Virus record (IMG/VR): IMGVR_UViG_3300013837_000016
Reading direction: 5' to 3' (one strand)
DNA from: a virus
Lineage: Duplodnaviria > Heunggongvirae > Uroviricota > Caudoviricetes
Length of the DNA stretch: 4,161 nucleotides
This document shows, one piece after another, positions 1-4,161 of this stretch. Every line of letters begins with the position of its first letter. Position 1 is the first letter of the stretch. The position numbers and the translations under genes were made by a program. The notes beneath the pieces are model-generated. The model was not told the origin of the DNA, made no database searches, and was given only the letters and a program-made list of their open reading frames with translations.

Positions 1-2
1 AG

Positions 3-968
3 CCCCGTGACGAGGTTAAACCTGTACGGTTAGGGGAAATCATTACTGACTACACTGACACGCTTGACAGGCGTCTGAGGAACGGAGAAGAGTCAGATAC
101 CCTGAAGACCGGAATCGAAGAACTTGATGCCATCACCGGAGGGATGAACGCGGAAGACCTGGTGATAATCGCTGCTCGTCCTGGTATGGGGAAAACCGAA
201 CTGGCGCTGAAGATTGCCGAAGGCGTTGCAAGTCGCGTTATTCCTGGTTCTTACGTCCGGCGCGGAGTGTTGATTTTCTCGATGGAAATGAGCGCATTGC
301 AGATTGCAGAGCGAAGTATTGCCAACGCCGGGAGGATGTCGGTTAGCGTGCTGCGAAATCCTGCATCGATGGATGACGAGGGCTGGGCACGTGTTGCTAA
401 CGGCATGAGTCAGCTTGCAGATTTGGATGTATGGGTAGTCGATGCCTCGCGGTTATCGGTCGAAGAAATACGCTCAATCGCAGAACGGCACAAACAGGAA
501 AATCCAAACCTGTCACTCATCATGGCGGATTATCTTGGCCTGATTGAGAAGCCGAAAGCAGACCGCAACGACCTCGCAATTGCTCACATCTCAGGAAGCC
601 TTAAGGCGATGGCGAAAGACCTGAAAACGCCTGTTATCTCCCTGAGTCAGCTTTCGCGCGATGTTGAGAAGCGACCAAACAAACGCCCGACAAACGCAGA
701 TTTGCGTGATTCAGGAAGCATTGAACAGGACGCAGACTCAATCATCATGCTCTATCGGGAAGCAGTATATGACGAGAACAGTAGCGCCGCACCATTTGCT
801 GAAATCATTGTGACGAAAAACCGTTTTGGCTCGCTTGGTACGGTTTACCAGCGGTTCTGTAACGGACACTTTGTTGCATGTGACCAGGATGAAGCCAGAC
901 AGATTTGCACAGCATCAAATGCACCCGCTGCACGTGGCAGGCGATATGCACAAGGGGCTGACGTATGA
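3..968 (+). CDS. DnaB-family replicative DNA helicase (P22 gene 12-like), 5'-truncated at window edge
   Basis: Open frame runs from position 3 with no upstream stop to TGA at 966-968. The translation contains ...[37 protein letters not shown]..., which matches the DnaB C-terminal RecA-like domain: the TGG loop followed by a Walker A motif (AARPGMGKT). Downstream DxxG/SQLSRD-type motifs are typical of DnaB helicases. It is not lambda P-like. Confidence 0.88.
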
Positions 969-993
969 CCATCTACATCACTGAGCTTGTAAC

Positions 994-1025
994 AGGCCTG
1001 CTGGTAATCGCAGGCCTTTTTATTT
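994..1025 (+). terminator. Rho-independent terminator, tR2-like, immediately after the helicase gene
   Basis: Perfect 8-bp inverted repeat AGGCCTGC (994-1001) / GCAGGCCT (1010-1017) with an 8-nt loop, followed directly by TTTTATTT (1018-1025). Its position between the replication genes and the nin region matches tR2 of lambdoid phages. Confidence 0.7.
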
Positions 1026-1040
1026 GGGGGAGAGTAAATC

Positions 1041-1247
1041 GTGGCTGAGTTAATTTTCTCTGCATTGAGGATTCTCGGTGCTATGTGGATGGTGTCGACG
1101 TTCATTGTGGTTGTCGGAAGTTTTGTCCGGTTGGTAGGCGAAGGTAAAGACCTGGTGGGTGTGCTTTTCGGTAGCATTTTCCTGTGGGTGATTATCGGTG
1201 TTATGCCTGTCGCTGTAGCAAAAATGGCGTGGCGTTTTGTTAGTTGA
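1041..1247 (+). CDS. small hydrophobic protein (68 aa, predicted two transmembrane helices), unknown function
   Basis: GTG start at 1041 preceded by a strong Shine-Dalgarno GGGGGAGAG (1026-1034); stop TGA at 1245-1247. The translation has two hydrophobic stretches (MWMVSTFIVVVGSFV and VLFGSIFLWVIIGVMPVAVA) separated by the charged loop GEGKD. It occupies the slot between tR2 and ninB. Confidence 0.5.
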   Translation: MAELIFSALRILGAMWMVSTFIVVVGSFVRLVGEGKDLVGVLFGSIFLWVIIGVMPVAVAKMAWRFVS

Positions 1248-1254
1248 GGTAACG

Positions 1255-1701
1255 ATGAAGCAAATATACATGCTTCGCAACGAAGCAATCAGAAACAATG
1301 TCATAGACGCAATACTCTCACTCCCCATCGACGACAAGTCACCTCACGAAGTCCACGTTAAAGAAGCCAAGCGGAGTAATCCTCAAAACCGCCTTATGTG
1401 GGCGTTATTGCAGGACGTATCGCGTCAGGTGCTTTGGCATGGAGAGAGACTTGCGCCGGAGGACTGGAAAGATCTGTTCACTGCCCTGTGGCTTAAGACC
1501 AAAAAAATGGAGCAAAGAAGTGCGCCTGGTATCGACGGTGGCGTTGTCATGCTTGGCGTGCGTACTAGCAAAATGCGAAAGGCCAACATGACTGAGCTTA
1601 TCGAAATCATGTTCTGGTTCGGCTCAGAGCGCAACGTGCGGTGGAGTGATGACTCCAGGCGAGAGTATGAATGGTCACAACGAAAAGGGAAGGCTGCATG
1701 A
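1255..1701 (+). CDS. ninB: NinB (Orf) recombination mediator protein
   Basis: ATG at 1255 with SD GAGG 6-9 nt upstream. The 148-aa product (MKQIYMLRNEAIRNN...NPQNRLMWALLQDVSRQVLWHGERL...[20 protein letters not shown]) matches lambda NinB/Orf in length and in conserved blocks (QNRxLWAxLxDVSRQVxWHG, KWSDE-like C-terminus). The six-frame ORF start at 1237 is an upstream in-frame codon lacking an SD. Confidence 0.9.
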   Translation: MKQIYMLRNEAIRNNVIDAILSLPIDDKSPHEVHVKEAKRSNPQNRLMWALLQDVSRQVLWHGERLAPEDWKDLFTALWLKTKKMEQRSAPGIDGGVVMLGVRTSKMRKANMTELIEIMFWFGSERNVRWSDDSRREYEWSQRKGKAA

Positions 1702-2225
1702 CTATCAAATCAAATACGCCATCACACGACAAGGACTGCTGGCAAACGCCGCTTTGGCTTTTTGATGCGCTGGATATTGAGTTTGGATTCTGGCTGGACT
1801 CGGCAGCGAGCGACAAAAATGCTCTGTGCGCTCACTGGCTAACTGAGGCCGACGACGCGCTAAATTCTGAGTGGATAAGCCACGGTGCAATCTGGAATAA
1901 CCCACCGTACAGCAATATCAGGCCGTGGGTGGAAAAAGCCGCTGAGCAGTGCATACAACAGCGACAGACGGTAGTTATGCTTGTGCCAGAGGATATGTCA
2001 GTCGGATGGTTCAGCAAGGCTCTGGAGAGTGTTGACGAAGTTCGCATCATCACTGATGGACGGATTAATTTTATCGAACCATCGACAGGGCTGGAGAAGA
2101 AGGGAAACAGCAAAGGCTCCATGCTGCTGATTTGGCGACCGTTCATCAGTCCTCGACGGATGTTTACTACCGTATCCAAAGCGGCATTGATGGCGATCGG
2201 GCAGGGCGTCAGGAGGGCGGCATGA
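1698..2225 (+). CDS. phage-type DNA N6-adenine methyltransferase (orphan; Dam-like phage family)
   Basis: ATG at 1698 overlaps the ninB stop (ATGA), with SD AAGGGAAGG upstream. The 175-aa product carries the catalytic motif IV NPPY (..[14 protein letters not shown]..) and an N-terminal CWQTPxxLF block typical of small phage N6-adenine methyltransferases. The six-frame ORF start at 1671 is an upstream in-frame codon. Confidence 0.75.
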
Positions 2226-2374
2226 GGCGACAGCGACGAAGTTTCACCGACATCATCTGCGAAAACTGCAAATACCTTCCAACGAAACGCTCCAGAAATA
2301 AACGCAAGCCAATCCCAAAAGAATCTGACGTAAAAACCTTCAATTACACGGCTCATCTGTGGGATATCCGGTGA
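2222..2374 (+). CDS. ninE: NinE protein
   Basis: ATG at 2222 overlaps the methyltransferase stop (ATGA), with SD AGGAGG 5 nt upstream. The 50-aa product [50 protein letters not shown] is near-identical to my recollection of lambdoid NinE. It was too short to appear as a separate ORF in the track, whose entry begins at 2132. Confidence 0.85.
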
Positions 2375-2400: not shown

Positions 2401-2760
2401 ATGGATTATTCACAGTTAAGTGATTTTGAAATTAACAAGCGAGTGGCAATTTGCTGTGGATTTGCTCCCGAAGATTGCGAAATCGCAAAGTTGGGAACAT
2501 CAATCGTTGGTGTTGAGTGGGATGACGAAACTGGTTATGCAATAAAAACGGTTGATTACTGTAAAAGCCCATCAGACGCAGAGCCGATTATCGTAGAGAA
2601 CAGAATTGGCATTATTCCAGCGCCAGAAAATGGATTATGGAAGGCAGCGCATAGAAAAGTTGGCAGTGATAGTACCCCATATCATATGAATCAAGATGAA
2701 AACCCACTCCGCGCTGCCATGATTGTCTTTCTCATGATGCAGGACGCCAATAATGCTTAG
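2401..2760 (+). CDS. acidic hypothetical nin-region protein (119 aa), unknown function
   Basis: ATG at 2401 with SD GAGG (2389-2392) 8 nt upstream; the ATG at 2395 abuts the SD, and the track's 2359 start overlaps ninE. Stop TAG at 2758-2760. I count 19 Asp/Glu against 10 Lys/Arg, giving a strongly acidic protein with 4 Cys. It has no lambda counterpart at this position; it may belong to a conserved phage DUF family, which I cannot confirm without a search. Confidence 0.6.
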   Translation: MDYSQLSDFEINKRVAICCGFAPEDCEIAKLGTSIVGVEWDDETGYAIKTVDYCKSPSDAEPIIVENRIGIIPAPENGLWKAAHRKVGSDSTPYHMNQDENPLRAAMIVFLMMQDANNA

Positions 2761-2929
2761 CCCATCCCAATCCCTTCAATACCAGAAAGAAAGCGTCGAG
2801 CGGGCTTTAACGTGCGCTAACTGCGGTCAGAAGCTGCATGTGCTGGAAGTTCACGTGTGCTCCGATTGCTGCGCAGAACTGATGAGCGATCCGAATAGCT
2901 CAATGTACGAGGAAGAAGACGATGGCTAA
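2753..2929 (+). CDS. ninF: NinF protein (58 aa, Cys-rich)
   Basis: Not in the ORF track (below the size cut-off). ATG at 2753 with SD AGGA 8 nt upstream; it overlaps the previous gene's stop by 8 nt. The translation [58 protein letters not shown] is near-identical to lambda NinF and contains CxxC...CxxCC. Stop TAA at 2927-2929. Confidence 0.85.
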
Positions 2930-3533
2930 ACCAGCGCGAAGACGATGTAAAAACGATGAATGCCGGGAATGGTTTCACCCTGCATTCGCTAATCAGTGGT
3001 GGTGCTCTCCAGAGTGTGGAACCAAAATAGCACTCGAACGACGAAGTAAAGAACGCGAAAAAGCGGAAAAAGCAGCAGAGAAGAAACGACGACGAGAGGA
3101 GCAGAAACAGAAAGATAAACTGAAGATTCGAAAACTCGCCTTAAAGCCCCGCAGTTACTGGATTAAACAAGCCCAACAAGCCGTAAACGCCTTCATCAGA
3201 GAAAGAGACCGCGACTTACCATGTATCTCGTGCGGAACGCTCACGTCTGCTCAGTGGGATGCTGGACATTACCGGACAACTGCTGCGGCACCTCAACTCC
3301 GATTTGATGAACGCAATATTCACAAGCAATGCGTGGTGTGCAACCAGCACAAAAGCGGAAATCTCGTTCCGTATCGCGTCGAACTGATTAGCCGCATCGG
3401 GCAGGAAGCAGTAGACGAAATCGAATCAAACCATAGCCGCCATCGCTGGACTGTCGAAGAGTGCAGGTCCATCAAGGCGGAGTATCAGCAGAAACTCAAA
3501 GACCTGAGAAATAGCAGAAGTGAGGCCGCATGA
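2922..3533 (+). CDS. ninG: NinG (Rap) recombination-associated structure-specific endonuclease
   Basis: ATG at 2922 overlaps the ninF 3' end by 8 nt, with SD GAGGAAGAAG upstream. The 203-aa product starts [33 protein letters not shown]..., has a lysine/glutamate-rich coiled segment and a C-terminal Cys/His cluster (CISCG...HYR...CVVCNQHK). Length and sequence match lambda NinG/Rap. Confidence 0.9.
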
Positions 3534-3736
3534 CGTTCTCAGTAAAAACCATTCCAGACATGCTTGTTGAAGCATACGGAAACCAGACAGAAGTAGCACG
3601 CAGACTGAAATGTAGTCGCGGTACGGTCAGAAAATACGTTGATGATAAAGACGGGAAAATGCACGCCATAGTCAACGACGTTCTCATGGTTCATCGCGGA
3701 TGGAGTGAAAGAGATGCGCTATTACGAAAAAATTGA
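3530..3736 (+). CDS. ninH: NinH, small Fis-like DNA-binding protein
   Basis: ATG at 3530 overlaps the ninG stop (ATGA). The 68-aa product [39 protein letters not shown]... is near-identical to lambda NinH and contains a helix-turn-helix-like segment ([18 protein letters not shown]). Confidence 0.9.
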
Positions 3737-4161
3737 TGGCAGCAAATACCGAAATATTTGGGTAGTTGGCGATCTGCACGGATGCTACACGAACCTGATG
3801 AAAAAACTGGAGACGATAGGATTCGACACCAAAAAAGACCTGCTTATCTCGGTTGGCGATTTGGTCGATCGCGGTACAGAGAACGTCGAATGTCTGGAAT
3901 TAATCACATTCCCCTGGTTCCGAGCTGTACGTGGAAACCATGAGCAAATGATGATTGATGGCTTATCAGAGCGTGGAAACGTCAATCACTGGCTGCTTAA
4001 TGGCGGTAGTTGGGTCTTTTATTTCGATTACGCCAAAGAAACCCTGGCAAAAACCTTTGCCCACAAAGCAGAAAAACTTCCATTAACACACAAAACGGGG
4101 GGCAAAAGAAAAAAACCGCCCCTTAACAACATCCCCGGGCCGCGGGGCCCCCCCCACCCCC
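3714..4161 (+). CDS. ninI: NinI-like Ser/Thr protein phosphatase (lambda PPase family), 3'-truncated; tail from about 4087 unreliable
   Basis: ATG at 3714 with SD GGAG 8 nt upstream, overlapping ninH by 23 nt. This frame is absent from the ORF track because no stop occurs before the window end. The translation [80 protein letters not shown]... carries the metallophosphoesterase signatures GDLHG, GDLVDRG and GNHE. After about 4087 the translation becomes implausible. Confidence 0.85.

Follow-up and report, generated by a model that had tools for sequence, protein, structure and literature searches.

The 68-codon open reading frame (ORF) that lies between the terminator tR2 and the gene ninB in the viral DNA described here is very probably a real gene for a membrane protein. 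It is, as it stands, an ordinary accessory gene. We read it as an accessory gene of lambdoid phages and prophages of the Enterobacterales, whose 68-residue product would be an inner-membrane protein with two transmembrane helices. That the protein acts through contacts made within the membrane we propose tentatively, with a confidence that falls a little short of even. The family has already been catalogued as a hypothetical protein (PHROG 1165, Lahn2 ORF69, Stx2-86_gp69 and WP_000818845.1), and its existence is not new. What is gained here is a corrected map, in which the gene is neither ren nor ninA; the correct start, giving a protein of 68 aa; and a wider family that shares a conserved motif.

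The gene is carried by Stx2-converting phages, too, and has neither a name nor a Pfam family. Small proteins that reside entirely in the membrane are systematically under-studied. A conserved gene, apparently expressed early, in such model phages as HK022, HK620, HK630 and mEp235 could lead to a target in the host membrane or to a role in counter-defence.

Gene order in the window

The window—the whole stretch of 4161 bases that was analysed—is, by the order of its Pfam-assigned genes, the right-hand early operon of a lambdoid phage or prophage. Its features are collected in Table 1. Region 1041–1247 has 100% DNA identity to the gene that encodes WP_000818845.1 in a prophage of Escherichia coli AVS0969. 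In that prophage the window genes are flanked by cI, cro, cII and replication genes and by genes for Q, holin and endolysin. The AVS0969 prophage carries its own lambda-family holin, endolysin and lysis protein, and this lysis cassette is situated ~5 kb downstream of the 68-aa ORF.

Table 1. Features of the window, including the segments of the 68-aa ORF
Feature	Position	Strand	Basis or detail
DnaB-type replicative helicase, 3' part; end of the replication module	1–968	+	Pfam DnaB_C, E 4.2e-72; replicative DNA helicase in the AVS0969 annotation
ninA mini-ORF, 27 codons, contains tR2	965–1048	+	ninA annotation in HK620, HK630, SPN9CC, Lahn2 and Sf6
tR2 intrinsic terminator: 8-bp GC-rich stem, 8-nt loop, T-run	994–1027 (hairpin 994–1017)	+	Terminator scan
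Shine-Dalgarno (SD) region of the 68-aa ORF, GGGGGAGAG	1026–1034	+	Sequence; lambda alignment
68-aa ORF, predicted helical-hairpin inner-membrane protein, PHROG 1165	1041–1247	+	GTG start; TGA stop 1245–1247
Helix 1, codons 11–29, ILGAMWMVSTFIVVVGSFV, flanked by R10 and R30	1071–1127	+	Kyte-Doolittle (KD) mean 2.16; Hessa sum -0.05
Turn, codons 32–38, conserved loop motif V-x-x-G-x-D-(P/L)	1134–1154	+	AlphaFold2 (AF2) loop residues 34–37
Helix 2 and short basic/aromatic tail, codons 41–68 (W49, G53, P56V, AK61, W64RF)	1161–1244	+	KD mean 2.49 (41–59)
ninB (orf), recombination mediator; gene after the 68-aa ORF	1255–1701	+	Pfam NinB PF05772, E 1e-48
Dam-type N6-adenine methyltransferase	1698–2225	+	Pfam PF05869, E 7e-65
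NinE	2222–2374		Pfam
NinX	2401–2760		Pfam
NinF	2753–2929		Pfam
NinG	2922–3533		Pfam
NinH	3530–3736		Pfam
NinI-like phosphatase gene	from 3714

Two other parts of the window deserve mention. The Dam-type methyltransferase gene occupies the place of lambda ninC, is joined to both ninB and ninE by ATGA-type overlaps, and is likely to be anti-restriction or self-methylation cargo. Over the last ~150 bases (~4008–4161), the window diverges progressively from the otherwise near-identical AVS0969 prophage. The NinI-like phosphatase ORF becomes a nonsense protein within this stretch, and homopolymer runs of G, C and A occur at the end. The divergence looks like read-end sequencing error and not biology.

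The boundary sequence: tR2 and ninA

The hairpin at 994–1017 is followed by TTTTTATTT, and the whole is base-for-base the tR2 sequence that stands between ren and ninB in lambda. tR2 is annotated at the same hairpin in HK620, Lahn2 and Sf6. It is the sole + strand terminator with a T-run, and it is upstream of the 68-aa ORF. Here and below, locus counts cover 80 related IMG/VR viral loci, out of the 265 IMG/VR stretches that encode the 68-aa protein; the exact tR2 hairpin occurs at most 90 nt upstream of the ORF in 76 of them.

Around this terminator runs the ninA mini-ORF, the ATG of which overlaps the helicase stop codon (ATGA) and the stop of which overlaps the GTG of the 68-aa ORF by 8 nt. 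In lambda the mini-ORF follows ren, and it is present, with a few amino-acid variants, in 67 of the 80 loci. Together, ninA and tR2 form the conserved ‘boundary sequence’ of lambdoid phages, a term that comes from the Sf6 annotation. The mini-ORF is ATGA-coupled to the helicase gene in the window and to ren in lambda, and in both it overlaps the start of the next gene. A single transmembrane helix is a plausible product. The 68-aa ORF itself was also considered as ninA, and this is ruled out: ninA is the 27-codon ORF that spans tR2 and is linked by ATGA to the preceding gene.

Start site and ribosome-binding site

The GGAG core of GGGGGAGAG lies ~8 nt 5' of the GTG. The same element is found upstream of every homologue, and alignment indicates that in lambda it serves ninB. 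In the window, ninB has an SD of its own (GAGG, 1246–1249), which overlaps the stop of the 68-aa ORF. Homologues from Salmonella phages (SPN9CC) have ATG at the codon where the window ORF has GTG, and this fixes the start of the 68-aa form. The boundaries given in the initial annotation—a 68-aa ORF at 1041–1247, between tR2 and ninB, which begins with GTG behind a strong SD—are confirmed.

Database records treat the gene differently. The GenBank annotations HK630_052 and mEp235_046 begin at an internal ATG, codon 17, and give a protein of 52 aa; in the HK620 and HK022 records the gene is unannotated. (The coordinates of the gene in the respective locus stretches are 746–904 in HK630, 743–901 in mEp235, 701–904 in HK620 and 695–901 in HK022.) Were the real product the shorter, 52-aa protein, as the two GenBank entries have it, it would comprise about one and a half helices. 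This is very improbable. Neither codon 15 nor codon 17 encodes Met in the clades of HK620 and SPN9CC or in the distant ones; the Salmonella clade has ATG as codon 1; and the SD sits before codon 1. The 68-aa form is the correct one because the internal Met is absent from other clades and because K/R10, G13 and W16, which precede codon 17, are conserved. Given so well kept a frame of 68 aa, the HK630 and mEp235 annotations, and the omissions from HK620 and HK022, would seem due for revision.

A conserved reading frame

A tblastn search with the 68-aa protein yielded 107 phage records, which fall into clades with identities of roughly 81–96%, 56–60% and about 44%. By megablast, the clade of the gene to which the window belongs is present in 503 of 5426 complete E. 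coli genomes (roughly 9%). At all 80 IMG/VR loci the frame is unbroken, begins with GTG and has 68 codons; these loci comprise 30 DNA alleles that encode 22 protein variants. Disruption of the frame in related phages, which the initial annotation had raised as a possibility, was not encountered among them. The homologues in HK620, mEp213, 720R6 and SPN9CC are collinear and free of indels at identities of 44–59%.

The pattern of substitution speaks for a protein. For between-clade pairs, dN/dS (Nei-Gojobori) is 0.21–0.35 at a dS of 1.1–2.2, and of the two halves of the gene the C-terminal one has the lower dN. Values of dN/dS as high as 0.5–1.2 are reached by some close pairs and, for the N-terminal half, by HK620 versus SPN9CC, so constraint on helix 1 is weak. 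The ORF's own frame (+1) is the only one that is open in all homologues, including those from Izhakiella that are ~30% identical. Taken together, these comparisons indicate that the 68-aa ORF is under purifying selection.

Two antisense ORFs extend over the gene, at 845–1288 (-, 147 aa) and 1050–1337 (-, 95 aa). As candidate genes they were rejected: they are shadow ORFs, a by-product of the abundance of T (54%) at the second codon positions of the gene, and in the Izhakiella homologues neither stays open. In Salmonella phage 146851_sal5 (locus 701–1015), the frame shifts near codon 61, with the result that the conserved K-M-A-W-R-F tail is replaced and the ORF runs on to 104 aa. Either the gene has been knocked out naturally there or the record contains a sequencing error. 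One homologue has an N-terminal half of the window-clade type, and its loop and the beginning of its helix 2 are of the HK620-clade type, which points to recombination between clades, apparently inside the 207-bp gene.

It might be supposed that the ORF is a chance or ‘filler’ frame, devoid of function and conserved through linkage to the boundary sequence. An open frame of 68 codons is by itself weak evidence for a gene (its chance p is about 0.04); the gene goes unannotated in two phage records, as noted above; and its C-terminus is frameshifted in one phage. Against this stand the conservation of the protein, without indels, across DNA that is saturated at synonymous sites, the intact frame at every one of the loci counted, and the homologues of ~30% identity that occupy the same operon position in three other genera. 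A filler frame is, to our minds, extremely improbable.

The predicted membrane hairpin and its conserved motif

The 68-aa protein is very hydrophobic (GRAVY 1.50). Kyte-Doolittle means, taken over 19-residue windows, delimit two hydrophobic segments (Table 1), for both of which the summed Hessa-scale values are ~0. The eight charged residues are all in the termini or in the 30–37 turn. AF2, given a 22-sequence alignment, models helices at residues 2–33 and 38–67 with a mean pLDDT of 90.4 and no soluble domain. The two-helix membrane assignment rests on hydropathy and on this model, and the two together confirm it as a prediction. The initial annotation had described a two-helix membrane protein and, in its remarks on function, had spoken of ‘bitopic’ proteins. 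The two helices stand, upheld by the hydrophobic segments and the AF2 hairpin; ‘bitopic’, which means single-pass, is the wrong word for a hairpin. As for orientation, the window protein has ~3 basic residues in the termini versus 2 in the loop, and in distant members the numbers are about equal; the positive-inside rule thus favours neither topology.

The residues conserved across the family are K/R10, W16, F21, V32, G35, D/E37, (P38), W49, G53, P56, V57, K61 and W64. Helix 1 contributes W16 and F21. In the turn, V32, G35 and D/E37 are conserved in 16–17 of 19 family members. Helix 2 and the tail form the most conserved part, with G53 and P56 invariant and W49, K61 and W64 nearly so. Conservation in helix 2 peaks at a period of 100 degrees, and so this helix would present one conserved face. 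Such a face fits equally well with intramolecular packing, with self-association and with the binding of another protein.

Family and database comparison

Comparison with PHROG 1165 (‘unknown function’) gives a full-length match, residues 1–68 against profile positions 1–68 of 68 (E 3.6e-36), and the protein is 92.5–94% identical to Lahn2 ORF69 and Stx2-86 gp69. The protein has no Pfam match at E<=0.1, no match among the NCBIfam profiles, and none among the PADLOC anti-phage defence profiles at E<=1. A profile search of PDB sequences likewise gave no match, and no Rfam family was found over the whole window. Foldseek, run against BFVD and the PDB, returned nothing below E 0.8, only generic helical hairpins; the nearest PDB folds, none significant, are transmembrane hairpins such as LH1 subunits, the ATP-synthase c subunit and designed transmembrane hairpins. 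Searches of one literature library found no publication on the 68-aa protein. The initial view that the protein belongs to no named family is borne out by these searches, in which PHROG 1165 is the sole match, and the structure prediction and Foldseek comparison that it called for yield the hairpin described above.

The gene occurs in the siphoviruses HK022, HK630 and mEp235, and in the P22-like and 933W-like podoviruses HK620, SPN9CC and Stx2-86. When 1.84 billion representative proteins were searched with a profile, only 27 matches emerged, distant members of the family among them. These distant members are 60–66 aa long (one N-terminally extended form has 85 aa) and about 26–36% identical. 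They come from Pantoea, Serratia fonticola and other assemblies, and related copies are present in two Izhakiella capsodis prophages. Viral contigs searched with single distant family proteins gave no match, whereas genome contigs searched with one such protein gave the two Izhakiella loci. The family thus appears to be a small one, restricted to prophages of Escherichia, Salmonella, Izhakiella, Pantoea and Serratia.

Distant members, too, keep company with replication genes. In one Izhakiella prophage the homologue overlaps the stop of a DnaB-type helicase gene, and in the other it comes directly after a lambda-P-type gene; in both it is upstream of NinB. In S. fonticola the order is cI-cro-cII-O-DnaC-like-NinX-like-homologue ... 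RusA-Q-holin, so that the homologue is one gene removed from the DnaC-like loader, and a second metagenomic contig is similar. Near-identical distant homologues are thus found behind three kinds of replication protein: a DnaB-type helicase, a lambda-P-type protein, and a DnaC/IstB-like loader accompanied by a NinX-like gene. A PF26207 (Phage_phiTE_015) gene lies within one or two genes after the homologue in Serratia and in the second metagenomic contig.

The cargo slot and ren

In lambda, the genes run P–ren–[ninA mini-ORF/tR2]–ninB, and the space from tR2 to ninB is empty. Of the lambdoid phage records that have the tR2 boundary in common, about a quarter carry the 68-aa gene at this point. 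Where present, it is always the first gene after tR2 and the boundary sequence, and in the distant relatives it follows the replication genes directly or nearly so. What surrounds it varies. The gene upstream is a DnaB-type helicase at 39 of the 80 loci, P and/or ren at 31 and a primase-helicase at 8; ninB comes immediately after the ORF at only 24, and nearly all the others have 0.1–1.1 kb of other cargo in between. The gene is thus combined with three or four replication modules, with or without ren.

Other phages fill the same space differently. In Sf6 it holds gp46–49. In 933W and Sakai Sp5, in which the 68-aa gene was sought and is absent, it holds different cargo, namely a hypothetical protein of 92 aa that is highly acidic. 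In 933W a Lar-like restriction-alleviation gene comes next, and the order there is ren, then tR2, then this other cargo. (The cargo is at 5551–6357 in the 933W locus stretch and at 7316–7594 in that of Sakai Sp5.) The space after ninA and tR2 is, on comparison of these loci, a hypervariable cargo slot.

The initial annotation had called this the ‘ren slot’, and that description does not hold. The lambda ren gene is upstream of tR2 and the 68-aa ORF is downstream of it, and at 24 of the 80 loci a lambda-type P, ren and the 68-aa ORF are all present (ren is found at 7 more). Since at least 24 loci have both genes, ren and the 68-aa gene coexist and do not substitute for one another. The ORF was also considered as a ren homologue and rejected as such: tblastn with lambda Ren finds a separate, upstream gene at 31 of the 80 loci and never the 68-aa ORF.

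Expression and proposed mode of action

A consensus scan of positions 800–1500, which is weak evidence, revealed no promoter-like site on the + strand. In lambda, transcription from pR needs N in order to pass tR2. By analogy, the 68-aa ORF, which lacks a promoter of its own and lies in the pR operon past tR2, would be made only upon N antitermination; infection or induction would yield its product in the delayed-early phase, and none would be made from a repressed prophage. That the protein would not be made in a repressed prophage argues against classical prophage-expressed exclusion and lysogenic conversion; a role in lytic growth remains compatible. Translation would proceed from the ORF's own SD and GTG, and might be coupled to that of the overlapping ninA mini-ORF. 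The nin genes are nonessential (PMC8022706), and the 68-aa gene would, as in the rest of the lambda nin region, be dispensable for plaque formation. We also considered whether the gene is a moron, that is, autonomous cargo expressed from the prophage. This was rejected: the gene has neither a promoter-like site of its own nor a downstream terminator, and the ORF abuts ninB, with which it overlaps at the SD.

Two transmembrane helices joined by a turn of 4–7 residues, with no soluble domain, would place the action of the protein inside the membrane; it must act there, on this model, because essentially the whole of it is in the bilayer. Most likely, the conserved face of helix 2 and the interfacial tail (W49-G53-P56-K61-W64) would dock on an inner-membrane protein of the host (or of the phage), and docking would change the activity of that partner during lytic growth. 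Other small membrane proteins, of bacteria and of phages, act by such docking.

Alternative functions

The roles put forward in the initial annotation (superinfection exclusion, membrane-acting toxin, modulator of host defence) are generic suggestions. A hairpin of this kind might instead associate with itself. As a pore or membrane-depolarizing peptide—viroporin-, holin- or toxin-like—it would oligomerize and leak ions, and the outcome might be host shut-down, a change in lysis timing or aborted superinfection. We judge both the mechanism and these effects unlikely. The protein is, it is true, very hydrophobic, with two helices only and with an invariant Gly and Pro in helix 2, and in size and two-helix layout it resembles the class II holins and pinholins. 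However, the gene belongs to the early operon and stands outside the lysis cassette, which in the AVS0969 prophage is supplied with a holin, endolysin and lysis protein of its own. Nor does the product have the features to be expected: in place of a highly charged, holin-type C-terminal tail it has only K61 and R65, its helices contain no polar or charged residues that might line a pore, and it has no Pfam holin or toxin match. Exclusion of superinfecting phage during lytic growth, at the stage of DNA entry, in the manner of T4 Imm, is distinctly unlikely. The inner-membrane route of incoming genomes would be blocked by a small early phage membrane protein, such as the initial annotation proposed, and Imm itself provides a precedent for an exclusion protein that is expressed early. 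But the gene is common to siphoviruses and to P22-like and 933W-like podoviruses, whose entry routes differ, and it has no Pfam Imm or Sie match. Expression from a repressed prophage, moreover, would not be expected of a gene that lies past tR2 and has no promoter of its own.

A further possibility, and a rather improbable one, is that the protein serves counter-defence, either by doing what Ren does or in some other way, as an antagonist, acting within the membrane, of a membrane-embedded abortive-infection effector such as RexB. In its favour, the slot behind the replication genes and tR2 holds counter-defence cargo in other phages, with ren just upstream in lambda and 933W and the Lar-like gene in the slot of 933W. 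The argument is one of position, however; coexistence with ren means that the protein is no ren substitute, and it has no similarity to known anti-defence proteins and no PADLOC match. With equally little confidence, one might imagine a new kind of counter-defence, in which an early intramembrane ‘plug’ neutralizes a membrane effector of the host or of a resident prophage (a channel of the RexB type or some other transmembrane effector). If true, this would explain the place of the gene in a hypervariable slot near ren and Lar-like cargo, and its free recombination among phages with unrelated virions and replication modules. The formation of a pore or leak, lytic exclusion, and the antagonism of a defence effector may each be either a rival to the binding of an inner-membrane protein, the reading that we prefer, or a sub-case of it.

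Comparison with known systems

The window ORF and the catalogued proteins PHROG 1165, Lahn2 ORF69, Stx2-86_gp69 and WP_000818845.1 belong to the same family and have no differing feature. Its neighbour NinA (lambda, P22 and HK620) is likewise very hydrophobic, but is a different product of a different reading frame. Lambda Ren, like the 68-aa ORF, is dispensable cargo of the pR operon that comes just after the replication genes, and one of the Izhakiella homologues is directly behind a P-type gene, as ren is in lambda. The two proteins have no sequence similarity: Ren has 96 aa, is soluble by sequence and is encoded upstream of tR2, whereas the 68-aa ORF specifies a predicted membrane hairpin and is downstream of it.

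Class II holins and pinholins (e.g. S68 of phage 21) are, like the 68-aa protein, phage-encoded, of similar size (about 65–95 aa) and composed of two transmembrane helices. They differ in context, being encoded in the late lysis cassette beside endolysin, whereas the 68-aa ORF is in the early-right operon between helicase and ninB. They differ also in having a highly charged C-terminal tail, where the 68-aa protein has KMAWRFVS, with two basic residues. A type I toxin (Hok/Ldr/TisB-like), which would have a single transmembrane segment, fewer than 60 aa and an antisense RNA antitoxin, was considered and rejected: the protein has two helices and no Pfam match, and the Rfam search of the window was negative. 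Small exclusion proteins, T4 Imm among them, are, as is the 68-aa protein, small, early and membrane-bound, without soluble domains. Unlike Imm, SieA and SieB, the 68-aa protein has no Pfam match and no significant fold match in BFVD or the PDB, and unlike proteins of the Imm type it is spread over phages with unrelated entry machinery. Closest to the proposed mode of action are AcrZ, MgrB, MgtS and SgrT. Although these are mostly single-pass, are encoded by the host and have no homology to the 68-aa protein, they, too, are shorter than 70 aa and nearly all transmembrane, and they act by binding to a larger membrane protein.
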